A stretch of 64,000 nucleotides of DNA, from the sequence record DRR378314_818. One strand, given 5' to 3'. Below are positions 170-15,395 of the stretch, piece by piece (position 1 is the first letter of the stretch; each line of letters opens with the position of its first letter). The notes under the pieces are model-generated. The model was not told where the DNA came from. It did no database searches and saw only the letters and a program-made list of their open reading frames with translations. The translations under genes and the position numbers were made by a program.

Positions 170-1672
170 ATGGAACTGAAAAACAGCATGACCAGCAACG
201 CCTTGAACTGGAAAACTTCGCTTCCCTATTTCATCACTGCACTGGTGATTTTCGTCGTGTGGGCGTGGCATCTGAATGACCTCGGGGTCGGCCACATCTA
301 TCATTATGATGAATTCTACACCTATGACCGCAGCACAGGGTTCGCCAGAAATGACGATTGGCTGGCTGTGTATTCGAACAATGCGCCCAGCCTGAAGAAG
401 CCGCCCATGCAATATTGGATGTCGGCGCTGCTGATGGAATTCGGGGTTGCTGACATTCTGGCCTTGCGATTGCCATCGATGATTTTTGCGCTGGGTGTTC
501 TGTTGGCGACTGCGGTGCTGGCGCGGGTCATGATCCCGCTAAGCCCTTGGGCCATGTTGCCCCCGGTTCTGATGGTGGCCAGTTCGCTGCAGTTCTGGCA
601 ACACGCCACCTCTGCGATGCTGGATATGGGGGCTGTATTTTTCTCGACCCTCAGCATCGCGGCATTGATCGTGGCGTTTGAAAGGCCAAAATACTGGCCC
701 CTATTCGGCGCAACCATCGTTTTGGCTGCGTTACAGAAAAGCCCGACACCGCTGGCCTTTCTTGCGTTGGCCTTTCTGACACTGAAGATAACCCGAAAAT
801 GGCAACCCGAACCGCCGATCGAAATCTGGCGAAACAAAAAGTTTCGGCGGATGCTGGCGATATCGGTCCCGCTGGCCTTTGCCTGGCCAATACTGCAGGA
901 ACTCCGCTTTCTTTTTGATGGCTCACTGGATGGCAACATCAAGGGCGAGATGCTGGACCGTTTTCGCCCGTCGCTCAGCGACCGGGGCTTGGGAAAGCTC
1001 TATGATCTGATCCTGGCAGGTGAGCCGTGGCTCCGTTTGATCGGCTTTGTCGGCCTTGGCGCGCTTCCCTTCCTGCAGAAACGCCCCAAGCTGTACGTTA
1101 CGACCGGAATAGCGGTATTTTTTGTCATCATGATGTGGGCTGCGTCGGGCAAAGTGTATGCAAGATACACGCTGCTTATCCTCCCGATGTTGATGGTTGG
1201 GGCAACAGGCCTGCTGTTTTCCGTCAAACGCCTGCAATGGGTTGGAATGGGCGTTGCGCTGGTTTTGTGCTTCTTCGCGGGCGGGCCGCTCAAGGATCGT
1301 GTGGCCACGGATCTTGGCCAGGGGCGCGTGCGTCTGGGTGTGCCTGAATCAGAACTCCTGAAGCCGCTTGGAGACATGCTGCAGCCTGATGAAACACTGC
1401 TGATCTGTGCAAGTGACCGAAAAATGCGAGTCCCGCCTGGTGCGGCGTCGGTTTATGCCTCAAACGGTCAGCGCTTCATTTACCTGCGCAGGCTGGAATT
1501 GCAGCGGTATCTGGAAAAATTCGACTACACGACCGGCCCGCTGCGGGGTCTTTGCACAATAGCCGAGCTTGAGCAGCTTGCGCCCGAATTTGATGGGCTT
1601 TCGACAGAACCAACAGCGGTCGAAGGTCTTGTCTACTGGTCGGCAACCGGGGTCAAAGCCGTTTCGGAATAG
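170..1672 (+). CDS. ArnT/PMT-family (GT-C) membrane glycosyltransferase
   Basis: Multi-TM 500 aa; N-terminal DE motif (HYDEFY), KKPP..YW, LRLPS, AMLD motifs typical of ArnT-like enzymes. Confidence 0.8.
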   Translation: MELKNSMTSNALNWKTSLPYFITALVIFVVWAWHLNDLGVGHIYHYDEFYTYDRSTGFARNDDWLAVYSNNAPSLKKPPMQYWMSALLMEFGVADILALRLPSMIFALGVLLATAVLARVMIPLSPWAMLPPVLMVASSLQFWQHATSAMLDMGAVFFSTLSIAALIVAFERPKYWPLFGATIVLAALQKSPTPLAFLALAFLTLKITRKWQPEPPIEIWRNKKFRRMLAISVPLAFAWPILQELRFLFDGSLDGNIKGEMLDRFRPSLSDRGLGKLYDLILAGEPWLRLIGFVGLGALPFLQKRPKLYVTTGIAVFFVIMMWAASGKVYARYTLLILPMLMVGATGLLFSVKRLQWVGMGVALVLCFFAGGPLKDRVATDLGQGRVRLGVPESELLKPLGDMLQPDETLLICASDRKMRVPPGAASVYASNGQRFIYLRRLELQRYLEKFDYTTGPLRGLCTIAELEQLAPEFDGLSTEPTAVEGLVYWSATGVKAVSE

Positions 1673-1873: not shown

Positions 1874-2635
1874 ATGCGTGCAGAATCCGATGCCAGTGCT
1901 GATAGCCGACCCGCTGTTTCGGTTGTGATTCCGATGCACAATGAACAAGGTGCGGTGCCCGATCTTGTGAAAGGGATCTGCGACGCGGCATCCGACCTGC
2001 CCGATTTCGAGATCATCGCGGTGGATGATGGGTCGACCGACGGAACCTATGAGGCGCTTAAGTCAATGCAGGCGGATTGCCCGCAGTTGCGCATTCTCCA
2101 GCATAAAACGGCCGGGGGTCAAAGCGCGGCGGTGCATTCTGGGGTCAAGGCTGCGCGGGCAGATATCTGCTGTACGCTTGACGGGGACGGTCAGAACCCT
2201 CCGGCAGAGCTGCCAAAGATTTGGGCCCCTCTGGTCTCGGGCGATGATGCGAGTGTTGGTCTTGTGGCGGGACAACGGGTTGGCCGGAAAGATACCGCGT
2301 CAAAAAAGCTCGCCTCGCGTTTTGCGAATGCCTTGCGCGGCTGGATGCTGAAGGACGGCACCCGTGATACGGGTTGCGGGTTCAAAGCGTTTCGAACGCA
2401 AGCTTTTCTTGATCTTCCATTTTTCAACCATATGCACCGATATCTGCCAGCGCTTTTCAAAGCCTACGGTTGGAATGTGGCGCTGGTTGACGTGGCGCAT
2501 CAGCAGCGTATGACAGGCCAGTCAAAATACACCAATTTCGGGCGGGCTATTGTTGGCATTTGGGATCTGTTCGGCGTCGTCTGGCTGACCCGACGCGCCA
2601 AATCCGTTTCGGCAACCGAGGCGAATCGGCCGTGA
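1874..2635 (+). CDS. GT2 polyprenyl-phosphate glycosyltransferase (ArnC/DPM-synthase-like)
   Basis: SVVIPMHNE, VDDGSTDGT, TLDGDGQNPP, DTGCGFKAF, HRYLPAL, G.SKY motifs. Confidence 0.9.
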   Translation: MRAESDASADSRPAVSVVIPMHNEQGAVPDLVKGICDAASDLPDFEIIAVDDGSTDGTYEALKSMQADCPQLRILQHKTAGGQSAAVHSGVKAARADICCTLDGDGQNPPAELPKIWAPLVSGDDASVGLVAGQRVGRKDTASKKLASRFANALRGWMLKDGTRDTGCGFKAFRTQAFLDLPFFNHMHRYLPALFKAYGWNVALVDVAHQQRMTGQSKYTNFGRAIVGIWDLFGVVWLTRRAKSVSATEANRP

Positions 2636-3103: not shown

Positions 3104-3739
3104 TTGCCCGACACCTCACACCGGCAGTTCAAACTGCGCCCCATGGAAAAGGCGGATCTTGAGATTGTGGCCCGCTGGTTTCAGGATGTTCGTGATCTTG
3201 CCCTGTTCGACAGGACCACGCGTATTCCACAGAATTTGATGCAAACCGAACATGCGTGGGACGATGCCGTTGGTGTCTCGGGCAGAAATGAAAGATGTTG
3301 GTTCGTGATTGAAAGCGATGATCGCGAAACTGTCGGGGTGGTCGGGCTCGAATCAATATCGCCTTTCAACCGGGATGCGGTAATTCCGGTATTTGTTGAA
3401 AAATCGTTGCGACGTCAGGGTGTGGCCGTGCGGGCAGTCGCCCTGATGTTGGATTTTGCATTCCAGCAATTGGGGCTGAACCGGATCACGTCGTATTATC
3501 GGTCTGACAATCACGGCAGCCGTGATTTGATCAGTCGACTGGGCTGTCAGGTTGAAGGCACCTTAAGGCAGGCCTGGTTTGCTGACGGGCAGTTTCACGA
3601 CATGGTCGTCGTCGGGATACTGCAACAGGACTGGGCAGAACGACGGGAAGCGCTTGCACAGGAACTGGACCGTGAAATCGTAGTCAGCTTTGGCGCGACA
3701 GGCTGGTCCTGGCCGCCTGAAAGCAATGCTGACTCATGA
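3104..3739 (+). CDS. GNAT N-acetyltransferase, RimJ/RimL-like
   Basis: LRPMEKADL, RRQGVA acetyl-CoA motif, FQQLGLNRI, EGTLRQ, DMVVVGILQQDW. Confidence 0.85.
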   Translation: MPDTSHRQFKLRPMEKADLEIVARWFQDVRDLALFDRTTRIPQNLMQTEHAWDDAVGVSGRNERCWFVIESDDRETVGVVGLESISPFNRDAVIPVFVEKSLRRQGVAVRAVALMLDFAFQQLGLNRITSYYRSDNHGSRDLISRLGCQVEGTLRQAWFADGQFHDMVVVGILQQDWAERREALAQELDREIVVSFGATGWSWPPESNADS

Positions 3740-3808: not shown

Positions 3809-5587
3809 GTGCTATCAGTGAAAACGACCGGTTCGGACCCATCAATTAAACAAAAGCTTGGGGCGGTGCTATTTGCCGATGTTGTCGGCTATTCCCGCCT
3901 GATGAGTGAAAATGAGATGGACACGTACAATGCGTTGAAATCTCTTCTGTCCCAACTTGAGGGCATCTGCATAAAATATCAGGGCAAGATCATCGAGGTG
4001 CGCGGTGACGGCATTCTTGCCCTGTTTGATACCGCCACCAGCGCGGTTGAATTCAGCATCGAACTGCACCGGATCGCGGCAGAGCATAATCAGACGCGGC
4101 TGGACGGTCAGCAGATCAAGTTCCGCGCAGGCGTGCACATGGGCGAAGTGCTGATGGATGAACGCGGTATCCACGGCGATAACGTCAACATCGCCGCCCG
4201 CCTGCAAGAGATTGCCGAGCCTGAGCGGGTGTATGTCAGCGCAGCCGTCTATGAGCAGATCCGCAATCGCCTGCGCTATGGCTATGAATTTCTTGGGCCA
4301 AAGCAGCTTAAAAATATCCTGTCCCCTGTAGCCACTTACTGTGTCCGAACCGAGGTTGAAGGTGCCACAATGGCCGCAACCTTGCGCCCCGAAATGCAGT
4401 TGGAGGTGCTGGAACGGCCCGATATCCCTTCGGTCGCTGTGCTGCCGTTCGCCAGCCAGGGCGGGGGTGAGGATGATAGTTGGGTTGCCGAAGGGTTGAC
4501 CGATGACATCATCATGAACCTGTCGAAATTCCGGAACCTGTTCATCATTGCCCGGAATTCATCCTTCTTCTTCAAGACCCAGTCGATGTCCCCGCAAGAG
4601 GCGGCCCGGCGTCTGAATGTGCGTTATATCGCGCGCGGCAGTGTTCGTCGTTCGTCCAGCCGGATCCGGATCACCGCCGAGCTGATCGATGCAAATTCTG
4701 AGCGTACAATCTGGGGCGAAAGGTTCGACCGCAAGCTCGACGATGTCTTCGACATTCTGGATGAAGTGACCGAATGTATCGTCGCGGCCACTGCGGTGAT
4801 GATCGAGTCGCACGAGAAACAGCGCATGGTGCAGTCGATCCCGTCAGACTTGCAGGCCTATGGCTCTGTCCTGCAGGGGCAGCATCATATCTTCAAATAC
4901 ACGCGCAATGATAACCGCAAGGCGCAGCATTGCTACGAATCTGCACTGGAACGTGACGGTGGATATGCAAGGGCTGCAGCGGCCTTGTCGCGCACGCTCA
5001 ACATCGATTGGCGCTATTCCTGGACCGAAGATCCGGGCAGCGCGCTGGACAAGGCGCTCTCGCTGGCCCAACGCGCCGTGGAGCTCGACCCCACAGATGC
5101 GCGCGGGTTTGGAGAGCTGGGCTATGTCCAACTGTACCGGAAAGAGCATGACGCGGCGATCGAATCCTACAAGCGCGCCTTGCAGTTGAACCCCAATGAC
5201 GCGGATATGCACTCTGACTACGCCGATGCGCTGGCCCATTGGGGCGACAACGAAACCGCGATTCAACACCTGCAACAGGCGATGCGCCTGAACCCTTATT
5301 TCCCCGATCAGTACCTCTGGCATCTGGGCGGGGCCTATTACAACCTCAAGCGCTATGACGATGTGATCTCTTGCGTGAACAAGATGAACAACCCCACCGA
5401 AGGGCAGCGGGTGCTGGCCGCCAGCTATGCCCATAAGGGCGAGTTGGATATGGCGCGTCAAATCGCCGACAAACATCGCGCGGTCCATCCGAATTTTTCC
5501 CTGTCGCGCTGGGCGAAGGTTCAACCGGATCGCCTGTCCGATGACACACAGCATTTTGTTGAGGGGTTGAAGAAAGCCGGGTTCTGA
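3809..5587 (+). CDS. Class III nucleotide cyclase with TolB-N-like and TPR domains
   Basis: FADVVGYS, GDG, FRAGVHMGEV, GDNVNIAARLQ; PSVAVLPF; C-terminal TPRs (ALQLNPNDAD, AMRLNPY). Confidence 0.9.
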   Translation: MLSVKTTGSDPSIKQKLGAVLFADVVGYSRLMSENEMDTYNALKSLLSQLEGICIKYQGKIIEVRGDGILALFDTATSAVEFSIELHRIAAEHNQTRLDGQQIKFRAGVHMGEVLMDERGIHGDNVNIAARLQEIAEPERVYVSAAVYEQIRNRLRYGYEFLGPKQLKNILSPVATYCVRTEVEGATMAATLRPEMQLEVLERPDIPSVAVLPFASQGGGEDDSWVAEGLTDDIIMNLSKFRNLFIIARNSSFFFKTQSMSPQEAARRLNVRYIARGSVRRSSSRIRITAELIDANSERTIWGERFDRKLDDVFDILDEVTECIVAATAVMIESHEKQRMVQSIPSDLQAYGSVLQGQHHIFKYTRNDNRKAQHCYESALERDGGYARAAAALSRTLNIDWRYSWTEDPGSALDKALSLAQRAVELDPTDARGFGELGYVQLYRKEHDAAIESYKRALQLNPNDADMHSDYADALAHWGDNETAIQHLQQAMRLNPYFPDQYLWHLGGAYYNLKRYDDVISCVNKMNNPTEGQRVLAASYAHKGELDMARQIADKHRAVHPNFSLSRWAKVQPDRLSDDTQHFVEGLKKAGF

Positions 5588-5972
5588 GAACAAGAACGGG
5601 AGTCGATTTCGCCGCAGCTTTTCATCTGTCGTCGTGTCCGGTGCAACGACGCGCGGTCTGGAGTTCAATATGATATGGCCACTAAGTTGCCGCTCGCTGC
5701 AAGTACAAAGCCATCTGCTAAAGCTCAAGTCGTCACTGAAACCCAATGCCAATGAACCCACCTATCGAGCCCCGATGCAGACATTCGGAAATACGAAGGG
5801 ATCCTATTTGTAGAAGTTCAGCGCTGCCTGCGACAAAGCGGACAACAACGCGAAGACCGCAGCGGCTTTGGAATAGTACTTCGCTCGGTTTGGCACTTCC
5901 ACAACCGACGAAGACAGCCAGCAAAATGCAGACATTATGGCCCAACCGGGCATAGCTGCTTTCAAGGTCAAT

Positions 5973-6206
5973 TCAATCACTTCTTGCACCCTTATTGTGA
6001 CGTCCTGAAACGAGCCACTTCTGGACTGACTGGGCAAGCGACCCCATGAATGGATCAGTGAACAACGGCTCTGAGGCTCCATCTGGGGTGAACTCGTAAA
6101 AGGCGTCTGACTCATCGGTATCCCATGTTCCGATGGTCTGACCTTCCTTAGTCACAACGTCACTGTTCTCCAAAAAATTGATCGGATACTTGTATTCGTC
6201 AGTCAT
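5973..6206 (-). CDS. Small acidic hypothetical protein (77 aa)
   Basis: ORF with a strong RBS (TAAGGAG) upstream of the ATG; low-GC block. Confidence 0.6.
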   Translation of the reverse strand: MTDEYKYPINFLENSDVVTKEGQTIGTWDTDESDAFYEFTPDGASEPLFTDPFMGSLAQSVQKWLVSGRHNKGARSD

Positions 6207-6228
6207 GCTTGCTCCTTATTGTGAATTT

Positions 6229-6501
6229 CTACCAATCCGATTTTCGGACCTTAGCATCGTGTAAAATTGCCCAGATATAGGAGGGTCCTCGAACGATGTT
6301 TCGCATAACACCAGGACCCTCTAGCGGCACTAATGCATAGACTTTAGCGAAGTCGCTCTTACCTAAACAGTAGTCGGTGCGGCTTGGGGTAAAAACGTCA
6401 CCAGAAATTGAGTAGGTAAATGGTTTGCCAGATTTGGTTCTGAATTCGCATCCCGCCAATGAGCGAAGCCGTTCCCAAACATCATCGAATTTTGGCTTCA
6501 T
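6229..6501 (-). CDS. Small hypothetical protein (90 aa)
   Basis: Globular-looking composition (EFRTKSGKPFTY...RGPSYIWAILHD); co-oriented and tightly spaced with its neighbours. Confidence 0.6.
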   Translation of the reverse strand: MKPKFDDVWERLRSLAGCEFRTKSGKPFTYSISGDVFTPSRTDYCLGKSDFAKVYALVPLEGPGVMRNIVRGPSYIWAILHDAKVRKSDW

Positions 6502-6504
6502 AGA

Positions 6505-6675
6505 CTACCATACACGCCATAAAATTAAGGTTAGCAGGCAAACTTTGACGATATCAAAAACCGTCTTGGCATTATCAGCACTCACCATCGTAGACGTTAT
6601 CGCGTCGCAGGAATTGGTCACGATCTGATTGATAATCGAGGTTTGTTGCTCTCTACTCAGGTCATCGTCACGCAT
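6505..6675 (-). CDS. Small 56-aa protein with a C-terminal hydrophobic segment (not in the ORF track)
   Basis: Read by hand: MRDDDLSREQQTSIINQIVTNSCDAITSTMVSADNAKTVFDIVKVCLLTLILWRVW*; very strong RBS AGGAGGAGGAG; stop 3 nt before the next ATG. Confidence 0.6.
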   Translation of the reverse strand: MRDDDLSREQQTSIINQIVTNSCDAITSTMVSADNAKTVFDIVKVCLLTLILWRVW

Positions 6676-7096
6676 GGCTCCTCCTCCTATTCCCAGTCTA
6701 CAGATTGAACAACTTGCGCCCCATTGACACAGTTGCCGCGGGCATCTTCATCGCTTTTTGACATTCTAGAGACCGGCTAATAACCTGTCGAATGAAGGTT
6801 TCTAAGTTGGAAATCACTTAGCTTTCATTCTCAATCAACAGTACACAACCTTTAAGTTAGTGGCGCCTCCACTCAAAGTCCTTTGAATAGAGGCTTTTCG
6901 AAGAGTTGTTGTTAAGTTTTTAGCAAATGATCTATTTTGTTAAATCACCTAATTCCTTAAATTTAGAGATATGATGAACGACGGCTCGGGGCTCAATGCA
7001 GGCATAAAGTCGCTGCTGTCCACACACTTGCACGTATGTGATCAGCAACACTTGTCATACGAGGCTTAGCTCAAAAGCGCCTTGTCTCAACGGGTC

Positions 7097-8005
7097 CTAT
7101 TCGCCGCGCGCCTTTGCACCGGACACTTTAGCCCCACTGACTTTGGCTCCGGACACCTTGGCGCCACTGACTTTCGCACCAGATACCTTGGCTCCGCTGA
7201 CCTTGGCCCCGGATACCTTGGCACCGCTGACCATCGGGGCGTCGTATTCGAAATAGACGTCCAACAGCACTTCTTCGATCTGGCCGGCCGCAATATCCAT
7301 GCGGAGGGTGTAATCAGCCTGATCGTAGTTCCAGACACGAATATCGCTGGCAATCTGGTAGTCCGCCGCAGCCACGCCCGAGACCGATGGGTTCATCGGT
7401 GCGCGCGCGGTTTGTTGCGTGGTATCCTCTCCGGCTTTGTCCAGCTTGAACCCGTAGGGCAGGTTGCCGCCGGTGGCACTTTCGCCGTGGCCGTGGACCA
7501 GAAAGATCGTCGGTTCGGGCATCTCGTAATAGGTGCCGTCGTAGGCGAAGCCGTAAATCCGAGCCAGCCGCGCATCGCCTCCGAGCTGGTCGCCGATAAA
7601 ATTATTTACGCCGCGACCCCTCCTGCGGTCATCCTGTTCGATGAACAGCTGATCTTTGTGGCTGTTTGCGGTCTGCTGCCAATAGGTATTTTTGAACTGG
7701 CGGCCCCGGCGAATGTAGACAAACGAGTCGTGTGAGACTTTCTTGCGCTTATCGAATTTGAACTCTCTACCGGATTTGACCACCTTGTAGATGCCTGAAT
7801 GCGCGTTGGCTGATGCGCCCACCTGAACGAGAACCCGGTCGTCTTCGCGGACAACAACACCGTCGATCTTCAGGAAGGTGTTATTCAGCTCAGCTTCGGT
7901 TGCAAGCTCTTCCGCCAAACGGACCGAACGCTGTTTCAGTTTAAGATCGCTTAACTCTCGCCCGAACAATAATACCTCGGAAAAACTGAGTAAGGACTCA
8001 GACAT
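7097..8005 (-). CDS. 302-aa protein with C-terminal (VSGAK)x8 tail; candidate YcaO/TfuA substrate or precursor
   Basis: RBS AGGGAGAAAG; last co-oriented gene after ycaO-tfuA-protease; the repeat varies only at synonymous positions. Confidence 0.8.
   Translation of the reverse strand: MSESLLSFSEVLLFGRELSDLKLKQRSVRLAEELATEAELNNTFLKIDGVVVREDDRVLVQVGASANAHSGIYKVVKSGREFKFDKRKKVSHDSFVYIRRGRQFKNTYWQQTANSHKDQLFIEQDDRRRGRGVNNFIGDQLGGDARLARIYGFAYDGTYYEMPEPTIFLVHGHGESATGGNLPYGFKLDKAGEDTTQQTARAPMNPSVSGVAAADYQIASDIRVWNYDQADYTLRMDIAAGQIEEVLLDVYFEYDAPMVSGAKVSGAKVSGAKVSGAKVSGAKVSGAKVSGAKVSGAKARGE
7112..7231 (-). repeat. Eight tandem 15-bp units encoding VSGAK
   Basis: Units on the + strand start at 7112, 7127, 7142, 7157, 7172, 7187, 7202 and 7217; all differences between units are synonymous. 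Confidence 0.97.
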
Positions 8006-8140
8006 ATCACTTTCTCCCTATCGGGGGCGGCGGAGCCTAGGGCAACGCCTGTCCCAGTTTGCGCATTCCTTGCGCTTCGATTGTCAAATTATCACCCCGT
8101 GTGCATAACCTGCCATAATAGCGGGGCAAAAACAAAGACT

Positions 8141-9451
8141 TTAAGGCTCTTTCGCTTCGGGCGCCAATGTACGAACCGACGCTGCATGGCTTGATCCGTC
8201 CGGCTTGGTCAGACGTGGGCCGGGCCGTGTCAGTCCGATGTCGCGCATTCGGAAATTGCCCTCAATGATCTGCCGGAATGCACCGCCGGTGATCTCGTGA
8301 TCGACCACGACCAAAGCGCGTTCGACCCCGAAATAGCTCAGCATATCGGCGTCCAGCATCTCCCACGCATCGGCAAGGTAGGTTCCCAGCAAATCCCGCG
8401 CCTCGATCAGCGCGACGCGGAACCCTTCGGGGTCGGCGGCGTAATGTTCGTCAAACAAATCCTGCATGATCGCATTGTATTCATTGGACCCCTCCAGCAC
8501 GTCCGACAATTCTTCCATTTCCGGATCGATCACATTATGGGCGACCAGCCGTTCATGGTAGATATCGACCAGAATATCGAACATGGCACCGGTCAGCGGC
8601 TCCGACAGGGCGTGTTCGCTTGACCACCCTTTTGAGAATTCAGAGAGCGTCCGGTCATTCGCGGCGATCCGGATTTGCGAGTTCTGCGACAGCTCAGCAA
8701 AGCGGCTGAGCCGGTTATAGGTATAGAGGTTCCCGCGCGTGTTCTTCAGCACCTCATCCACGACCGAGCCGAAATGCAGTGACGCCAAAAGCGCCACCAT
8801 ATCCGCCGCAGATTCATGGAACCCGTAATACTCGCCAGTTGCATCCTCTTCCGAGGGCAGGCCGATGACGCTGTAAATGATGGCATGCCCGATCTCATGC
8901 GCCACCACGTCAAAGTTCAGGCTGTAGGGGCGGTATTCATCGCCATGCTCGCGGGTGCCGCCGGTTTCCAGAAACCCCCAACCGATATGCGCATTGTCGA
9001 GACCGGGCAGCAATGACAGCTCTAGCCGGTCGAAGTCACGCTCGAAATGCCACGGGATCGACCGGCCGAAATATCCCTCCCACACATCCATGGTAAAATG
9101 GGCCGACCCGAACAGATGGGCGGCTTCAAAGCCGGGGTCTTCGGGATCGATATGGATGAAATTGCCGAACTCATCGGGTTCGGGTGGTGGCAGGATATAG
9201 CCGTCCCAGGCGGGCAGATACATCTCGGGGCCATCCTCACCCTCGATCATCGCGCCATAGGGGGTCGTCTTGTCGACCGGGTACATCGCGTACATGCGCG
9301 GCCCCGAGGGTCCGGGCCCGATACTGCCCTGCGGGGCCGAAATCTCGACCAGTTCAGGCTTCGAGTTCGGCTCAAGATAGGGCGATTGCGGGTACAGCAG
9401 AAACCGCGTGCCCGGAGTTTCACTTTCCGAGTAGTCGGGCCAGATCGTCAA
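8141..9451 (-). CDS. Zinc metalloprotease, gluzincin (M4/M36-like), no signal peptide
   Basis: DNAH, DVVAHEIGH (HExxH), downstream GFHESAAD (third Zn ligand E), SEHALS resembling the thermolysin xVHxxS motif. Confidence 0.8.
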   Translation of the reverse strand: MTIWPDYSESETPGTRFLLYPQSPYLEPNSKPELVEISAPQGSIGPGPSGPRMYAMYPVDKTTPYGAMIEGEDGPEMYLPAWDGYILPPPEPDEFGNFIHIDPEDPGFEAAHLFGSAHFTMDVWEGYFGRSIPWHFERDFDRLELSLLPGLDNAHIGWGFLETGGTREHGDEYRPYSLNFDVVAHEIGHAIIYSVIGLPSEEDATGEYYGFHESAADMVALLASLHFGSVVDEVLKNTRGNLYTYNRLSRFAELSQNSQIRIAANDRTLSEFSKGWSSEHALSEPLTGAMFDILVDIYHERLVAHNVIDPEMEELSDVLEGSNEYNAIMQDLFDEHYAADPEGFRVALIEARDLLGTYLADAWEMLDADMLSYFGVERALVVVDHEITGGAFRQIIEGNFRMRDIGLTRPGPRLTKPDGSSHAASVRTLAPEAKEP

Positions 9452-9474
9452 TGTCCCCTCCCGTTATCGTCCCG

Positions 9475-10827
9475 TCAGAGTTCAGCCCGCTTATCGGGCA
9501 CCTGGTCCTCGGGATCGCCACCGAGGTGGCAAAACATGAATTCGGCTTCAATCAAATCAACAAACGCCTCACGCCCTTCAAGTCCAAGCGCGATTGCATA
9601 GGATTCAAGATCATCCGGTATCGCTTGGTCAAGCCGTGTTTCAAAAAACCAGATCAGCGATTGCGTTCTGTTCGTGTCGCCAGCGGTGCCATTCACCCGA
9701 TGCAGCCCCTCGAGGTGATCAGCCTTGCGCCGCGCCCGGTCGCGTAACGTGCCATAGCTGCCATCGTGGCGAAGCTCGGCCAATAGGGCTGTGTCCAGAT
9801 CGTCCGCACGCGCGGAAACAATCGCATCCTTATGGGCACGGTCGGCCAGCATAGCTTCGTATTGTGTTAGGGTCAGGTCGTTGTCCTGAAGCCATTCCAT
9901 CAAATCGGCATGGCGGGGCAGACGTGCCACAAAACGGTGCGCGGTCATCTGTTGCCGCAGCGCATCACGGTCGGGCAAATGGTTGATCCGATGCGCCTCA
10001 TCCCGCGCCAGCAGGTGTAACGCGGCCCGGTCGCGCAGACGGGTATATAGCTCTGGATCCAGCCGCACCTCATCCACTAATGCCCGTGCCTCTGATTCTT
10101 GCGAGGCGCTCTCGGAATCGACCCGAGCCTGCAGTTCGCGCCAGACCAGAGTGCGTTCAACACGTGGCGCGGCCGGGCCCTCTTTGTCCGCCTTCAGATA
10201 CTGCGCCATTTGCGTCAACATCTCACGGGCGTCATCACCCTTGGCATCCACCTGCCCCTCGGGCAGCCAGTTGTGAAATTCTTCCAGACCCAAGGCGGTA
10301 TCTACCGCCGCAATCACCTTATCCCAAACTCGGTCGCGATAGTGCAGGCCCTTGGCCGCATCCAACAGGGTCTGGGCAACCTCTTCCGAAACCACTTTGG
10401 CCGCCACCGCTTCTGCAAGTGTAGCACGGATCGAGACCATCGGCTCGCTCAGCGGCATAAAGCCAAGCTCGGCTGGACCGTGCAGCACCGCGACCTCATC
10501 GTCGTCAGCAATCGCGCCGCTCAGATATTCCTCAAATACCCGTCCGACGCCAATCATCCCGAAATCGGCCAGTTCAGCCGCGCGCAGGGCACCCATACTG
10601 GCGCTGCCAAAAACAGGTATGCCCTGTTCCAGCGCCCACAGGATTTCCTTGTGCCAGACCGAGGGTACACCGTCGAAATACCCATCAACGATGCCAATGG
10701 CCCGCGGCTTGTCGCGCACCACGCGATACACATCACCCTGCTGCACCGGGGGCAGGATGGTCGCGTCCAGATGCTCTTGCACCGACTCAGCCCGCAGCGT
10801 GGGTCCAACGAAGACAACGATGCTCAT
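9475..10827 (-). CDS. tfuA: TfuA-like protein with C-terminal helical extension
   Basis: VVFVGPTL, PPVQQGD, IVDGYFDGVPSVWHKEIL, GSASMGALRAAEL, DDDEVAVLHGP; start overlaps the ycaO stop (ATGA). Confidence 0.93.
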   Translation of the reverse strand: MSIVVFVGPTLRAESVQEHLDATILPPVQQGDVYRVVRDKPRAIGIVDGYFDGVPSVWHKEILWALEQGIPVFGSASMGALRAAELADFGMIGVGRVFEEYLSGAIADDDEVAVLHGPAELGFMPLSEPMVSIRATLAEAVAAKVVSEEVAQTLLDAAKGLHYRDRVWDKVIAAVDTALGLEEFHNWLPEGQVDAKGDDAREMLTQMAQYLKADKEGPAAPRVERTLVWRELQARVDSESASQESEARALVDEVRLDPELYTRLRDRAALHLLARDEAHRINHLPDRDALRQQMTAHRFVARLPRHADLMEWLQDNDLTLTQYEAMLADRAHKDAIVSARADDLDTALLAELRHDGSYGTLRDRARRKADHLEGLHRVNGTAGDTNRTQSLIWFFETRLDQAIPDDLESYAIALGLEGREAFVDLIEAEFMFCHLGGDPEDQVPDKRAEL

Positions 10828-12017
10828 GCCGACACCGCCCCCGCCCTTGGGCCCGCGATGAAATCGGGATCGTCATGCGGTGCCTCCAACCCCGGAATAA
10901 CCGCGCGAATAACGGCGATATCGATCTCGGGCCGGGACAGATCAACTGTTACAACTTGATCGATCCCAGCTGCCGACAGCCGGGCCAACAGCAGATCAAG
11001 ATCTTCGGTGAAAGACCCGGTCAGATACGACGGGCAATCGGAAAAACGCCCTGTCGCCGCAGCGCCATCGATCAACTCGCGGATATACCGGCTGCGCCAA
11101 GTGCGGGCCTCGTCCGAGAACTCCTCGGGGTCCAGATCATCCCGCGCGCCCGAAATATAGGTCAGCCGCGTCTGTGCCGCCTCGGTCAGCGCGCGCAACA
11201 GCGCAATGGCGCGGTCTGGGTGGCAACCATCCCCGATGCCGATATGGCCCGTTGCCTCTCCGGCCTCGCAGATGACACAGCGAAAGCTGGCGATGCCGAT
11301 ATCCGAAGTTGTGTCCCAAATCCCCAGTTCCAGGCCCGCCGCAGTGATCCGATCCATCGCTTGCTGACAGCGCGGATCATCGACCGTCGCCGGATCAACG
11401 CGCGGCATGGCCCCTCCGTGGTGCCACAGCGTAGTGGCGTCGCGCTCGATCAGTTCACAGATCGCATGGCAGCTGGCCTCAACAGCATCATTGCCCGAGG
11501 CCAGACCATTTGTCGTGCGCGGAAACGCCCGCTGCCCGGCTACCGGTGAGGTGGTGTAATCCGTATCCACCATCTCATAAGGAACCCAACAGTCAGCATC
11601 GGCGGTCAGGTCGCGCCCCTGCACCCACAGCATCGCCCCATGCGGGTCGAACTGCCCGCCCGTCACACGGGGCAGGCGGTCGACATCAACCACGTCGTCC
11701 GGTTCCAGATCGGCATGGCTGCACAGCCGCAGCGGCAGCTCGATCCGTTCTGCATGCCACGCCTCGATCGCTTCCATTACGCCCGAGGCCTGCGCCGCGC
11801 TCAGCGACAATCCCTTACCCAGCGACACCGCGACCGAGCGCGAGTTGGGCCGCGTCACCATCACCGTGGGCAACCCGATCCGGTCCAACCCGGTTAGGTT
11901 GGCGATCCGAGTGATGCCCATCTGTTTGAGAAACGGTTTGACGATGGCAAGGGTCTGTTCCGGATCGCGCAGCCGGTGGGTATCCAGCACATAAGTCTTC
12001 TGCGAAATCCCGGGCAT
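10824..12017 (-). CDS. ycaO: YcaO-family protein (TfuA-associated, thioamide-forming type)
   Basis: GITRIANLTGLDRIG, SLGKG, MEAIEAWHAE, TTNGLASGN, ELIERDA, RALTEAAQTR, AVIPGLE; no C-terminal PxPxP of azoline-forming YcaOs. Confidence 0.95.
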   Translation of the reverse strand: MPGISQKTYVLDTHRLRDPEQTLAIVKPFLKQMGITRIANLTGLDRIGLPTVMVTRPNSRSVAVSLGKGLSLSAAQASGVMEAIEAWHAERIELPLRLCSHADLEPDDVVDVDRLPRVTGGQFDPHGAMLWVQGRDLTADADCWVPYEMVDTDYTTSPVAGQRAFPRTTNGLASGNDAVEASCHAICELIERDATTLWHHGGAMPRVDPATVDDPRCQQAMDRITAAGLELGIWDTTSDIGIASFRCVICEAGEATGHIGIGDGCHPDRAIALLRALTEAAQTRLTYISGARDDLDPEEFSDEARTWRSRYIRELIDGAAATGRFSDCPSYLTGSFTEDLDLLLARLSAAGIDQVVTVDLSRPEIDIAVIRAVIPGLEAPHDDPDFIAGPRAGAVSA

Positions 12018-12278: not shown

Positions 12279-13175
12279 TCAGATCAACATCTCAATTTGT
12301 GCGCTTGGGAACTGCGATACCAGCCCGTTGATTTTGGATTCTGGGGTCAAACACAGGGCGGTCGATAGACCGTCGGCCACTGCCGCCTGTGGGGCGGATA
12401 CCGATACCGCCCGAAACGTTACACCGATCCCCTTTGGGTTCAGGATATGGCCTTGATCGTCCTGCAGCATGGTGCCTTCGGGGGCTGAGGTTGCGACGGC
12501 TCGGTCTTGCAGCCTGACCCGTTTGGCGACCATGCCATCCGGTGTGGCCAACCCGATATGCCACTGCTCGCCGATCCGTCTTCGACCAAGGGCTGCAACC
12601 TCGCCCATATCCACCAGAACATTGTGCAGATTGAAAGACCGCAGCAACGCTGCAATCCGGTCCGTGATCGCGCCTTGCGCTATCCCGTTGAGCGTGATCG
12701 CTGATCGTCCGGGATGTGGCAGGCGAATTTCATCCGCGCCCACACGCACCATATCCCATCCGATTGTCTGCTGCGCGCGGTCCACTTTCGGCCGGGCCGC
12801 ACCGCTGGCAAGCGCTAGCCATAGGGGCTGGATTGTCGGATCAAACACCCCGCCCGAGGCGTCGTGAAGCGCAGAACACAGGCTGAGCACCTCCAGTAAC
12901 TCGGGCGCAGGGGCGCTCAGGTGACCCGTCCGGTTCAACTGGCTGATCTGCGAGTGTGTTCGATAAAGGCTGAAGATATCTTCAAGCCGGTTCAGCTCTG
13001 CCTCGACTGCGGCAAAGATCGGTGCAGCTTGCGTATCCGTCAGCCCCTCAAGCCGCAGGCCGGCAGGAGCGCCCAGTGCTACACCGCGCCAATGGGCCGA
13101 GGTGCCCGCCATCGCGGGAACCGCAGCGCAGGTGGCTGAGATGGTCAGGAAACGGCGGCGGGTCAGAACAGTCAT
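12279..13175 (-). CDS. nosX: FAD:protein FMN transferase NosX (ApbE family), Tat signal
   Basis: TRRRFL Tat motif, FDPTIQPLW, TLNGIAQG, ATSA, GHILNP, ADGLSTAL; last gene of the nos cluster. Confidence 0.9.
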   Translation of the reverse strand: MTVLTRRRFLTISATCAAVPAMAGTSAHWRGVALGAPAGLRLEGLTDTQAAPIFAAVEAELNRLEDIFSLYRTHSQISQLNRTGHLSAPAPELLEVLSLCSALHDASGGVFDPTIQPLWLALASGAARPKVDRAQQTIGWDMVRVGADEIRLPHPGRSAITLNGIAQGAITDRIAALLRSFNLHNVLVDMGEVAALGRRRIGEQWHIGLATPDGMVAKRVRLQDRAVATSAPEGTMLQDDQGHILNPKGIGVTFRAVSVSAPQAAVADGLSTALCLTPESKINGLVSQFPSAQIEMLI

Positions 13176-13687
13176 GCGGGGGTCTCCAGTGCGAGGTCCA
13201 GATCGACAGGTCCCAGCACCTCGGTATCGGGAATGTCCGACAACGGAAGCGCCGCGCCGCCATAATTCGCGATGAACGCCTCTGCCGCGGAGAGATCACC
13301 GAAGGGCACCACTTCGCGTGCGCCCATGCCGCCGGCGACATCGGCACCAACGACAAAGGTTGCACCATCAGCATCGATCCAATTCGATATCCCCGGGCTG
13401 CGCCAACTGGGCGCGACGCTCATATCGCTGACATAGACGGCGGTGATCTTGGCATCCCGCTCGGGGCTTTTCAGATACGCCACCATGTCACGCACCTGCG
13501 CGAAGAACAGGGGAGCAGGGTAACCCTCAAGATGGATCTGTCCCTTTGGCCCGCCATGTTCGGCGATGTTCATCTGGCAGAAAAAGCTAAGCGCATCCGG
13601 GGTGAGGTTGACCGGGTCGGGGGCCTCGACCACTTCTTCCTTGCAGGCCACCAGCGCGACCAATGCGATCAGGGCGAGATGTTTCAT
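13172..13687 (-). CDS. nosL: Copper chaperone lipoprotein NosL
   Basis: Lipobox LVAC; CQM, GPKGQI, GGMGA motifs; position after nosY. Confidence 0.9.
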   Translation of the reverse strand: MKHLALIALVALVACKEEVVEAPDPVNLTPDALSFFCQMNIAEHGGPKGQIHLEGYPAPLFFAQVRDMVAYLKSPERDAKITAVYVSDMSVAPSWRSPGISNWIDADGATFVVGADVAGGMGAREVVPFGDLSAAEAFIANYGGAALPLSDIPDTEVLGPVDLDLALETPA

Positions 13688-14505
13688 GGCTCAACCCTCC
13701 GGAATGCGAGCCGCGCAAGCGCAAAGCCCAGCACCGGCCAGATCAGCAGCGAGGCGGGCGCAGCCCAGACCGGCAGGGCCTGCGCAGCCCCGGTCATGCC
13801 CGAGGCCATGGCGACGCCCTCGGTCGCGGCGATGTTCCACAAACGGAATGCGTCGGCCGGGTTGGCCACCATCACCCATGGAAAGACGGATTGGGTGAAG
13901 ACGCCGCCCTTGTCCATGACGACGGCCCCCAACAGGCCCAGATCATAGAGGACGACAAAAACCAGCCAGAGCCCGGCCGACAAGCCTGCCGCCGCCGTGG
14001 CCCCCTTTGCCAGGGCAGACAGCAAGTATCCCAATGCCAGGAACACAGCGCCCAGCAGTATCGAAGTGAGGATCAAACGCGCCAGCGCCATCAGGCTTTC
14101 CGACCCCGCGCCACCGAACCAAGCGGCCACGGCACCAGCAGTGCCAAAACCGATGGTCATGGCAAAGGCCAATGCCGCAAGATGGGCGGTGAACTTACCA
14201 AGCAGGATTTCCCCGCGCCCGGCAGGGTAAGACAGCAACAGCGACAGGCTGCCCCGGTCCACGTCGCCTGCGATTGCATCAAAGGCGATCATCAGTGCCA
14301 GCAAAGGCGCAAGATAGACCGACAGCGTGGTCATCGAGGCGACTGAAACGGTCAGCATATCGACTCCCAACGTGCCGGTTGGCGCGCTGCCTGCGAAGGT
14401 CAGCGCCAGAGCGAACAGCACCATGATCAAGGTGGCGACCAGCAGCCAGCGATTGCGGCGCAGGATCAACATTTCGGTGCGGGTGATGGCGAGGAAGCGG
14501 GTCAT
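13684..14505 (-). CDS. nosY: ABC permease NosY
   Basis: Multi-TM; RRNRW, LLLSYP...GKF, NPADAFRL. Confidence 0.92.
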   Translation of the reverse strand: MTRFLAITRTEMLILRRNRWLLVATLIMVLFALALTFAGSAPTGTLGVDMLTVSVASMTTLSVYLAPLLALMIAFDAIAGDVDRGSLSLLLSYPAGRGEILLGKFTAHLAALAFAMTIGFGTAGAVAAWFGGAGSESLMALARLILTSILLGAVFLALGYLLSALAKGATAAAGLSAGLWLVFVVLYDLGLLGAVVMDKGGVFTQSVFPWVMVANPADAFRLWNIAATEGVAMASGMTGAAQALPVWAAPASLLIWPVLGFALARLAFRRVEP

Positions 14506-15395
14506 AACCTCTCCTCCTGTGCATAGTGGCGATAAAGATCCTCCAGCTTGGGCGGGGTCATTTCCACATCCGCGACCGCGTCGCCCAGTCCGGCGATCCG
14601 GCGCAGGGCCTCCATTTTGTCCTCGGGTGTGCAGAGCATTTCAATCGACGCGCCATTGATCCGGCTGCCGCCCAGTTCAGCGGCCAAGGCGTCGGGGTTC
14701 GCACTGGCGCGGACCTTCAGGCGGATTGGCAGACCGGCCAGCGCCGACAGGTTGGTCAGCGTGTCATCGGCAACCATCCGGCCTTTGCGCATGATGGCAA
14801 TGCGGTCGGTGCGGGCCTCAACCTCGGTCAGCGCGTGGGACGCGATCAGCACCGCCGTTCCTTGCCCTGCCAACTCATCAATGATGGCATAAAGATCTTG
14901 CCGCGAGATTGGGTCTAAACCGGATGTGGGCTCATCCAGCAGCGCCACTTTCGGCTGGCCCAACAGCACCTGCGCCAGACCCAGACGTTGCCGCATGCCT
15001 TTGGAATAGGCCCCGATCCGGCGGTCGAGCGCATCGCTCAGACCAACACGCTCCAACAGGCCGGGAACGTCGGCCTTGCCACCGGAAAGCTGCGCAAACA
15101 GGGTCAATTGTTCTCGCCCGGTCAAAGCGGGATGGAAGGAAACCGCCTCGGGCAAATAAGCCGTCTCGCGGCGCGCCTGCGCGCTGCCGGGGCTGGCGTC
15201 TCCGATCCAAATGGTGCCTCCTTCAATCGGGATCAGGCCAAGGATGGATTTGATCAGGGTCGACTTGCCCGCGCCGTTATGGCCCAGCAGCGCGACGCGC
15301 TGACCGGGGGCAAGGGACAGCGTGATATCGTCAAGAACGCGGGTTTTCCCTCGGTCCTTGCTGACTTGAGTAATCGTCAGGGCCTTATCCGTCAT
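14502..15395 (-). CDS. nosF: ABC ATPase NosF
   Basis: GHNGAGKST Walker A, YSKGMRQR signature, LLDEPTSGLDP. Confidence 0.93.
   Translation of the reverse strand: MTDKALTITQVSKDRGKTRVLDDITLSLAPGQRVALLGHNGAGKSTLIKSILGLIPIEGGTIWIGDASPGSAQARRETAYLPEAVSFHPALTGREQLTLFAQLSGGKADVPGLLERVGLSDALDRRIGAYSKGMRQRLGLAQVLLGQPKVALLDEPTSGLDPISRQDLYAIIDELAGQGTAVLIASHALTEVEARTDRIAIMRKGRMVADDTLTNLSALAGLPIRLKVRASANPDALAAELGGSRINGASIEMLCTPEDKMEALRRIAGLGDAVADVEMTPPKLEDLYRHYAQEERL

Follow-up and report, generated by a model that had tools for sequence, protein, structure and literature searches.

Few protein modifications are as rare as the backbone thioamide, and to our knowledge Actinobacteria are the source of all TfuA-dependent peptide products characterised so far. 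A survey of these systems counts, in the portion drawn on here, more than 1000 TfuA-YcaO clusters without known products in Proteobacteria, including some from Ruegeria, and names there only Nif11-like or other short precursors (PMC8120280). We analysed one such cassette, which lies in a stretch of 64,000 nucleotides (nt) from sequence record DRR378314_818 (hereafter the window), the host of which is a marine Ruegeria. Consistent with an earlier reading of these letters (the original prediction), four co-oriented genes on the minus strand encode a YcaO enzyme, a TfuA protein, a gluzincin-type metalloprotease and a 302-amino-acid (aa) protein, here called Rep, whose C-terminus reads M-(VSGAK)x8-ARGE. 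We propose, with about even confidence, that the cassette modifies a ribosomally made substrate, and that Rep is this substrate, being thioamidated and cut to short peptides. On the strength of gene content and sequence, we read the cassette as a new arrangement: a putative thioamidated multi-core system, akin to the peptides that ribosomes make and that are modified after translation (RiPPs), having a leader the size of a protein, its own thermolysin-fold protease and a nucleotide cyclase as partner. A full-text literature search, with subscription journals and supplementary files outside its range, returned no description of the precursor, the protease or the cassette; the supplementary cluster tables of PMC8120280 may hold these loci as unnamed TfuA-related clusters.

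The closest known analogue is the thiovarsolin pathway (VarA/VarY/VarT) of Streptomyces varsoviensis. As set out in the cited part of its description, the precursor VarA carries one to five repeats, only YcaO and TfuA are needed, and the products are N-acetylated Ala-Pro-Arg tripeptides with a Pro-Arg thioamide, which host enzymes release and acetylate (PMC6511847). Within the bounds of that account, the two systems share a repeating-core precursor, a YcaO and TfuA pair, short units with a basic residue, and a range of precursors from non-repeating to multi-repeat; thiovarsolins are N-acetylated, and a GNAT-type acetyltransferase gene is found in 59 of 80 loci here. The differences are nonetheless considerable. 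VarA, compared here by its description, is a short peptide with imperfect repeats, whereas Rep proteins span 190-310 aa and combine a conserved folded leader domain with perfect units. The var cluster, as described in the same part, has no protease and depends on host peptidases and a host acetyltransferase, whereas a dedicated thermolysin-fold protease is conserved here. The heme-oxygenase-like (VarO), ATP-grasp, amidinotransferase and MFS genes of var are not matched by any gene of the set conserved here, and conversely a protein that joins a class III cyclase to TPRs (cyclase-TPR) has no counterpart in the var cluster so described. Finally, the hosts are Actinobacteria there and Alphaproteobacteria here.

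Other described systems are more distant. The enzyme pair with which methanogens thioamidate McrA, a substrate that is a full-size protein and not a short peptide, provides the best-scoring curated families for both window enzymes, namely TIGR03266 (McrA-glycine thioamidation YcaO) and NF033432 (TfuA of the McrA pair). Both matches nevertheless fall under the family cutoffs (229.8 against 365 bits, and 206.7 against 235.2 bits); moreover the substrate is unrelated, the host is bacterial, and an extra C-terminal region of ~220 aa in TfuA, the protease and the repeat tail all set the window's system apart. Thioamitides (the thioviridamide and thioholgamide family) combine a short precursor with AviMeCys formation, methylation and histidine modification. 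What they would share with the present cassette is the proposed installation of backbone thioamides by YcaO and TfuA on a ribosomal substrate, whereas in Pfam scans of its six proteins the conserved set lacks both a short precursor and genes that would form AviMeCys, methylate the product or modify histidine. The original prediction was therefore right that the locus departs from thioamitide architecture, although it passed over the thiovarsolins as a nearer relative; the absence of a short precursor, LanD, methyltransferase, ThiS/ThiF and exporter, on which it had remarked, agrees with the gene set conserved across loci. Among RiPP precursors more generally, those of the NHLP and Nif11 type have a long conserved leader. 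Cyanobactin and phomopsin precursors are multi-core in the cited part of the thiovarsolin report (PMC6511847). Rep resembles both kinds, in that a protein-like leader precedes a hypervariable core and several core copies occur per precursor, and differs from them in a leader without Pfam family or clear fold match and in perfect units without recognition spacers. We considered and rejected the window as one of the Ruegeria TfuA clusters with a Nif11-like precursor that figure in the cited portion of the survey (PMC8120280), as Rep and two small open reading frames (ORFs) near it match no Pfam family at E<=0.01.

Rep and the cassette enzymes

The YcaO of the window matches PF02624 over profile positions 2-325 of 325 (E 1.1e-80; 271.9 bits against a cutoff of 25.7), and its TfuA matches PF07812 (E 4.9e-47, 159.1 bits) and, over residues 3-168, the solved TfuA structure 6xp8 (E 5.2e-33). 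The C-terminal extension of TfuA matched only long-TfuA clusters in an atlas search, with scores of 0.75-0.76 that lie below the useful range. As first reported, the ycaO stop and the tfuA start share an ATGA, and the protease gene, which has a TTG start, begins 23 nt after the tfuA stop, this gap including the ribosome-binding stretch GGGAGGGG; the overlap constitutes translational coupling between ycaO and tfuA, and their adjacency is kept in 71 of 80 loci. A further 135 nt separate the protease gene from that of Rep. A YcaO tree was built from 34 rows, of which 18 represent the 59 complete loci and 16 are others; L097, with a split ycaO frame, was omitted. The 26 YcaOs linked to repeat genes, together with that of Paracoccus, fall on one side of a branch whose SH-aLRT (Shimodaira-Hasegawa-like approximate likelihood ratio test) value of 81 is not strong support. 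Complex prediction for YcaO, TfuA residues 1-270 and Rep returned a score of 0.00, which we count neither for nor against an interaction. The nearest genome compared (G001) holds a single copy each of the repeat gene and of ycaO; its Rep and protease are 100% identical to those of the window, and its YcaO and TfuA only 96%. This uneven divergence across a 5-kb cassette may reflect recombination inside it.

The 436-aa metalloprotease has no match in Pfam (at E<=0.01), NCBIfam, PHROG or PDB sequences, and NCBIfam release 20 holds no model for it or for the repeat protein. It is nonetheless better conserved than any other gene of the cassette (mean column identity 59%), and H185, E186, H189, E213 and D217 are invariant in 35 sequences. 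The two histidines and E186 between them form the HExxH motif, and E213, going by the gluzincin motif and by the fold match, is presumably the third zinc ligand. An AlphaFold2 (AF2) model (mean predicted local distance difference test (pLDDT) 82.2, predicted template-modelling score (pTM) 0.87) was matched best by thermolysin in a Foldseek search (4tnl; E 7.9e-07, probability 1.00, TM 0.60 on target), and all 25 PDB matches at E<=1e-3 belong to families M4 or M36, including M36 fungalysins, aureolysin and LasB, which likewise match at probability 1.00. The protein has no hydrophobic N-terminus, signal peptide or propeptide, the highest mean hydropathy over 19 residues being 1.29. Given the absence of any sequence-model match and of a hydrophobic N-terminus alongside a modelled two-lobed thermolysin fold, the protease is best described as a separate sequence family, predicted to be cytoplasmic, which accords with the cytoplasmic gluzincin originally proposed. 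None of the six cassette proteins has a hydrophobic segment (highest 19-residue mean 1.43), which argues that the module as a whole is cytoplasmic.

The repeat tail of Rep is not a simple duplication. Its eight VSGAK units are encoded by eight different 15-nt strings, with a mean difference of 4.4 of 15 nt over 28 pairs; all of these differences are synonymous, Ser being encoded by both TCN and AGY codons, and Tandem Repeats Finder reports DNA matches of only 65-82% across 7112-7231. The repeat is more than chance or recent slippage, and the peptide sequence of the unit is under selection. In other lineages the units mix codon families in the same manner, for Ser and for Arg (CGN/AGR). Mean identity to the window protein among 16 Ruegeria orthologues is 100% for residues 1-16, 70.6% for residues 17-130, 89% for residues 131-250 and 95.9% for the tail (residues 259-298).

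Ahead of the tail, Rep comprises a short N-terminal motif and two domains. In 54 sequences M1 and G15 of the motif are invariant and E3, L5, L6, S9, L12, L13 and F14 are conserved at 90% or above, and a related motif is found in remote relatives without repeats. AF2 modelling with the same number of sequences predicts a confident beta-rich domain at residues 11-125 (pLDDT >90), a moderately confident C-domain, and a tail without secondary structure (pLDDT ~36-43) in which no beta-helix is predicted. Natural short forms of ~190 aa lack approximately residues 17-130 and keep the N-terminal motif, the C-domain and the tail. Rep matches no Pfam family at E<=0.01, and its predicted fold has no PDB match at E<=1e-3 by Foldseek; a wide VIA-align search gave a best Z of 4.9 (a phage baseplate protein, over residues 26-127) and GroES-like rows at Z ~4, from which no fold was assigned. 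PHROG matches, among them one to a tail fibre (E 7e-4), were set aside for their weakness.

The family to which Rep belongs is large and has no name. A word-indexed search returned 188 homologues at E<=1e-3, and all 120 close homologues among the matches listed end in tandem units and have D or E as terminal residue. A profile of the C-domain (A4), searched in 1.84 billion representatives, matched 667 representative clusters (at 50% identity) at E<=1e-3 and 486 at 1e-10. Among the best 148 of these 667 representatives, D or E is terminal in 102, and 100 have at least three tandem copies, with a period of 5 residues in 63, 7 in 29, 4 in 3, 8 in 2, 6 in 2 and 9 in 1; the remaining 48 have two copies or a single tail. 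A relative without repeats aligns with the Rep C-domain at an hhalign probability of 97% (E 1e-10). Units are uniform within a protein and specific to lineages (among them VSGAK, VSGAR, VAGGR, VGGGK, ARGAN, ARGMN, ARGMS, SGQRARV, SGAHARV and SGADLR), number 3-10 per protein in one tally (with VSGAK, VSGAR, VAGGR, ARGMN, ARGMS and others) and 3-12 with periods of 4-9 residues across relatives, and usually have in common Gly and one basic residue. Unit type follows the enzyme tree, since 9 changes account for its distribution where the minimum is 7 and the mean after shuffling 22.1. The family thus has the layout of leader and core, a conserved motif and domain followed by a hypervariable tail, which bears out the original suggestion of a large folded leader with cores. 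In the family sample described below, one genome without TfuA matches only the repeat part of Rep (G225:C7:6125-6238; residues 262-299, E 9.3e-6), and the match is probably an unrelated Gly/Ala-rich repeat.

Linkage across genomes and the cyclase-TPR neighbour

A scan of one genome per species with the motif W-x-Y-D-K-A-D, which is biased to close relatives, returned 80 loci, among them 50 from Rhodobacterales and 21 from Hyphomicrobiales. YcaO, TfuA and protease genes directly adjoin the repeat gene in 71 of the 80, 70 of them in the window's order; in L069 the protease gene lies upstream of ycaO. The protease is found in 75 loci. Six are cut by contig ends, and four of these six still show the protease, or the protease and TfuA. 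Three Leisingera loci, each with a single repeat gene, have no enzymes within 10 kb, and TfuA and protease lie ~19.5 kb away on the same contig; in two of these genomes (G252:C34 and G253:C2) one in-frame TAA falls within the protease match, such that the gene may be broken. Because the motif scan favours close relatives, an even sample of 401 alphaproteobacterial genomes was searched with a profile of the conserved Rep domain: nine carry it, and in all nine YcaO, TfuA and protease are adjacent. The co-occurrence of repeat tails with YcaO and TfuA, and variation in unit number and sequence, were both put forward as checks in the original prediction, and on both the genomes speak in its favour.

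In L067, an alphaproteobacterial metagenome-assembled genome (6452-10720), only pieces of YcaO, TfuA and protease are left (117, 183 and 164 aa) and the repeat array has degenerated as well; this is joint decay of enzymes and array, and we count it in favour of the reading of Rep as the substrate. Elsewhere, Rep is frameshifted in L078 and the protease shortened in L043. Within a further sample, of the family with one genome per genus (251 genomes), TfuA occurs in nine, of which three loci are of the repeat type, three pair the protease with a single-tail Rep-like protein, and three have neither; six of the nine TfuA loci in this sample therefore belong to the Rep-protease system. Its range takes in Ruegeria, Leisingera and Roseovarius among the marine roseobacters and, among plant symbionts, Mesorhizobium and plasmids of Rhizobium.

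On Rhizobium plasmids, 49 records have a match to the Rep domain. Four were examined, which represent one syntenic site, and the order there is cyclase-TPR, protease, Rep-like protein and small ORF; the protease is 48% identical to that of the window and the Rep-like protein has imperfect seven-residue units. The small ORF (110-124 aa, no Pfam family), conserved downstream of the Rep-like gene in these plasmids (L106/L116-L118), could be a further component specific to this variant, which is free of YcaO and TfuA.

Clustering of all ORFs across the 80 loci shows that only YcaO, TfuA, protease, Rep, cyclase-TPR and GNAT are kept. The four genes originally grouped as a system are indeed conserved together, and the two further neighbours had been missed. 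A cyclase-TPR homologue stands beside Rep in 78 of 80 loci, both misses being contig ends; its gene is convergent with Rep in Rhodobacterales and co-directional in Mesorhizobium. In the window protein PF00211 matches residues 19-168 (53.9 bits, the cutoff being 21.9), with TPR families matching at residues 430-540; the cyclase A-D and G-D positions are invariant in 59 orthologues, and the TPR part is the most conserved part of the protein. The GNAT protein (PF13302, E 1.5e-19) is encoded next to the cyclase in 59 of the 80 loci; those of the Mesorhizobium type do not have it. In the non-repeat subfamily the place of the 590-aa TPR form is taken by a ~1000-aa protein that combines cyclase and AAA_16 domains, and a protein of this larger kind also flanks two YcaO-TfuA loci without Rep (L094 and L099). 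A PADLOC scan for components of anti-phage defence matched only the cyclase domain, through generic PycC models (E 9.6e-12 and weaker), and none of the other five proteins.

Two curated families resemble cyclase-TPR in pairing a class III cyclase and TPR-type repeats with a peptide-modification cassette: TIGR04510 ('putative peptide modification system cyclase') and TIGR03903 ('TOMM system kinase/cyclase fusion'). As its scores lie far under their cutoffs (50.2 bits against 400, and 31.6 against 705.75), cyclase-TPR is a member of neither. The TPR part also seems to vary with the units. When loci are matched for protease identity, those that differ in their units have less similar TPR parts (identities of, for example, 0.857 against 0.921), whereas the middle domain shows no such gap, and the four near-fixed differences between an Arg-type Ruegeria clade and its Lys-type sisters all fall in the TPR part, position 535 being Leu in 10 of 10 Arg-type and 3 of 36 Lys-type loci. 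This covariation derives from only two independent Lys/Arg switches on supported branches, in a gene whose TPR-coding 3' end physically adjoins the Rep tail.

Candidate fates of the repeat tail

Under the reading that we prefer, in which Rep is a multi-core precursor, its N-terminal motif and beta-rich C-domain would act as a protein-sized leader and the disordered tail of eight identical VSGAK units as the core region. YcaO would activate backbone amides with ATP and TfuA supply sulfide, converting one or more amides per unit to thioamides. The cytoplasmic thermolysin-fold metalloprotease would then cut the tail, most likely once per unit, to release short thioamide-bearing peptides with one basic residue each, the freed amino group of which GNAT may acetylate; the cyclase-TPR protein, as part of the same module, may serve as regulator or as sensor of the product. 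Azoline or amidine formation was rejected as the general chemistry: many units (VAGGR, VGGGK, ARGAN, ARGMN) hold no Ser, Thr or Cys, and for this reason backbone modification suits every unit whereas azoline formation cannot be general. Thermolysin-type enzymes cleave before a hydrophobic residue, and most repeat units hold one. In contrast to the thiovarsolin pathway, protease and acetyltransferase would both come from the cluster.

Several observations weigh against this proposal. Rep is assigned as the substrate from linkage and architecture, and, as the enzyme scores lie below the equivalog cutoffs of the McrA pair, the chemistry of YcaO and TfuA is read from family resemblance. The units abut without spacers, and the specificity of the protease is a similar difficulty. 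GNAT is missing from 21 of 80 loci, and the conserved gene set contains no exporter, immunity gene or sulfur carrier. Paracoccus denitrificans has the cyclase, YcaO, TfuA and Rep and no protease on its 1.73-Mb replicon. In Rhizobium, YcaO and TfuA are missing from the 8-10 kb around the locus in the four records examined, and TfuA from the whole of the 565-kb plasmid pRlvE, which indicates that thioamidation in cis is not required for tail, protease and cyclase to persist. The original interpretation thus drew support from linkage and architecture, and was weakened by the Rhizobium lineage, by a module larger than four genes and by the closer likeness to thiovarsolins.

Some of these same facts would suit a tail that stays on Rep, thioamidated by YcaO and TfuA in the manner of McrA, such that the modified protein itself functions, for instance by binding metal or through a basic tail that resists proteases, and the metalloprotease only trims it (as at the acidic ARGE end) or controls its turnover. 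The best family matches of the enzyme pair are indeed protein-modifying enzymes that act on McrA, the substrate is folded and has a domain predicted with confidence, the RG..D/E end is conserved, no exporter belongs to the conserved set, and the P. denitrificans variant manages without the protease. Against it, no cassette gene is better conserved than that of the dedicated protease, which is present in 75 of 80 loci, the N-domain is dispensable, and thiovarsolin, the precedent at hand, releases its units; free variation of period and copy number, with units uniform within each protein, also suits many copies of a product better than one structure. We consider a retained tail unlikely. Less credible again is an ordinary structural or nucleic-acid-binding repeat, whether a two-coil pentapeptide beta-helix or a basic disordered tail, with YcaO and TfuA directed at another target and linked to Rep through shared regulation. 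Several public records do name close homologues 'pentapeptide repeat-containing protein', NCBIfam models of HetL and Alr5209 pentapeptides match weakly (E ~1e-3), each unit has a basic residue and R-G repeats occur in many relatives. But those matches reach 18 bits against cutoffs of 125-260, PF00805 is unmatched at E<=0.01, the tail is modelled at pLDDT 36-43 with no strands, and relatives with periods of 4, 6, 7, 8 or 9, or with no repeat, are incompatible with a pentapeptide beta-helix. Nor do the loci offer another target for the enzymes, as the overlap of ycaO with tfuA and gaps of 23 and 135 nt leave no room for a further precursor and no other gene is conserved across loci. We regard this explanation as highly improbable.

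A different emphasis places signalling at the core, with Rep or its cleaved peptides as ligand or regulator of the TPR-cyclase and thioamidation as an accessory that tunes or stabilises the ligand. Since Rhizobium does without YcaO and TfuA and P. denitrificans without the protease, Rep and a cyclase-type protein are the pair always kept together, which raises the standing of this possibility. Cyclase-TPR is the neighbour most tightly linked to Rep, remains beside it in the three Leisingera genomes whose enzymes lie 19.5 kb away as well as in the Rhizobium lineage, and is most conserved in its TPR part. TPR domains bind short peptides and acidic C-termini, and units of 4-9 residues would fit as their ligands; the drop in TPR identity between loci with differing units, without a gap in the middle domain, and the confinement of the near-fixed Arg/Lys-type differences to the TPR part point in the same direction. 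Two independent switches, however, carry no statistical power, and block recombination could give the same pattern where the TPR-coding end and the Rep tail adjoin in convergent genes. Cyclase-domain genes that flank YcaO-TfuA loci without Rep would fit a general regulator of the cluster, the partner in the non-repeat subfamily is not the TPR form, and there is no conserved transporter for export or import. On balance a signalling core seems to us quite unlikely. Its fullest version, which we hold to be similarly doubtful, is a peptide-signalling circuit of a kind undescribed in Proteobacteria, in which identical peptides, cut by the protease and protected by thioamides, would be read by the TPR part and switch the cyclase, with unit 'dialects' (VSGAK, VSGAR, ARGMN, SGAHARV) matched to their own TPR receptors. 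In RRNPP signalling of Firmicutes a TPR receptor binds a processed peptide of 5-8 residues; by functional analogy only, the present module likewise sets a TPR protein beside a gene for a short-peptide precursor (units of 4-9 residues) and a processing protease. It differs in that the output would be a nucleotide cyclase and not a helix-turn-helix domain or phosphatase; nor does the precursor have a signal peptide, and genes for export or import are not conserved. If such a circuit exists, its logic would be RRNPP-like, its output a cyclic nucleotide and its mark a thioamide.

Should Rep instead prove to be the thioamidated and cleaved multi-core substrate that we favour, the cassette would represent a new RiPP class with an unusual leader, a simple model for the thioamidation of repeated sites, and a possible link of peptide modification to cyclic-nucleotide signalling. 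A large share of proteobacterial TfuA-YcaO clusters gains in Rep a concrete and testable candidate substrate.

Coordinates and surroundings

Table 1. Features of the cassette and of adjoining genes, in window positions
Feature	Position	Strand	Description
ycaO	10824-12017	minus	397 aa; PF02624 match; ATP-dependent backbone-amide-activating enzyme (by family)
tfuA	9475-10827	minus	450 aa; PF07812 match; TfuA core ~residues 1-230 and ~220-aa C-terminal extension
HExxH protein	8141-9451	minus	436 aa, TTG start; thermolysin-fold zinc metalloprotease, family without name
Repeat-tailed protein (Rep)	7097-8005	minus	302 aa; candidate precursor/substrate
Rep residues 1-16	7958-8005	minus	N-terminal motif M-x-E-S/T-L-L ... 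L-F-G-R
Rep residues 17-130	7616-7957	minus	variable beta-rich insert domain
Rep residues 131-250	7256-7615	minus	conserved leader-like C-domain
Rep residues 259-298	7112-7231	minus	eight tandem VSGAK units, candidate cores
Rep C-terminal ARGE and stop codon	7097-7111	minus	conserved acidic end
Cyclase-TPR gene	3809-5587	plus	592 aa; class III adenylate/guanylate cyclase and TPR; convergent with Rep
GNAT gene	3104-3739	plus	211 aa; RimJ/RimL-type acetyltransferase; directly upstream of cyclase gene
ApbE	12279-13175	minus	nitrous-oxide reductase accessory cluster
NosL	13172-13687	minus	nitrous-oxide reductase accessory cluster
Membrane protein	13684-14505	minus	nitrous-oxide reductase accessory cluster
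ABC ATPase	14502-15395	minus	nitrous-oxide reductase accessory cluster
PMT_2-type glycosyltransferase-like membrane protein	170-1672		upstream of GNAT gene
GT2 glycosyltransferase	1874-2635		upstream of GNAT gene

The spacer between the cyclase and Rep genes (5588-7096) measures ~1.5 kb in the window, against some 50-100 bp in the majority of related loci; its G+C is the lowest in the window (0.505 for 6001-8000), and it holds two small minus-strand ORFs (5973-6206, 77 aa; 6229-6501, 90 aa) without family match or counterpart in the 80 loci; it looks like a strain-specific insertion. Upstream of ycaO, minus-strand genes at 12279-15395 form part of a nitrous-oxide reductase accessory cluster, which is not kept with the cassette in other genera, and on the far side of the cassette homologues of the GT2 gene occur in only 19 of 80 loci. 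Scans for promoters and terminators gave counts that are not above those of shuffled sequence (5 against 4.6, and 10 against 8.5), and we do not rely on the site that they placed between the protease and Rep genes (8116-8088, minus). The terminator scan also marked, at 7986-8001 on the minus strand, a 6-bp hairpin followed by a T run within the codons of the N-terminal S-E-S-L-L-S of Rep, which may be a chance occurrence or a translational feature.

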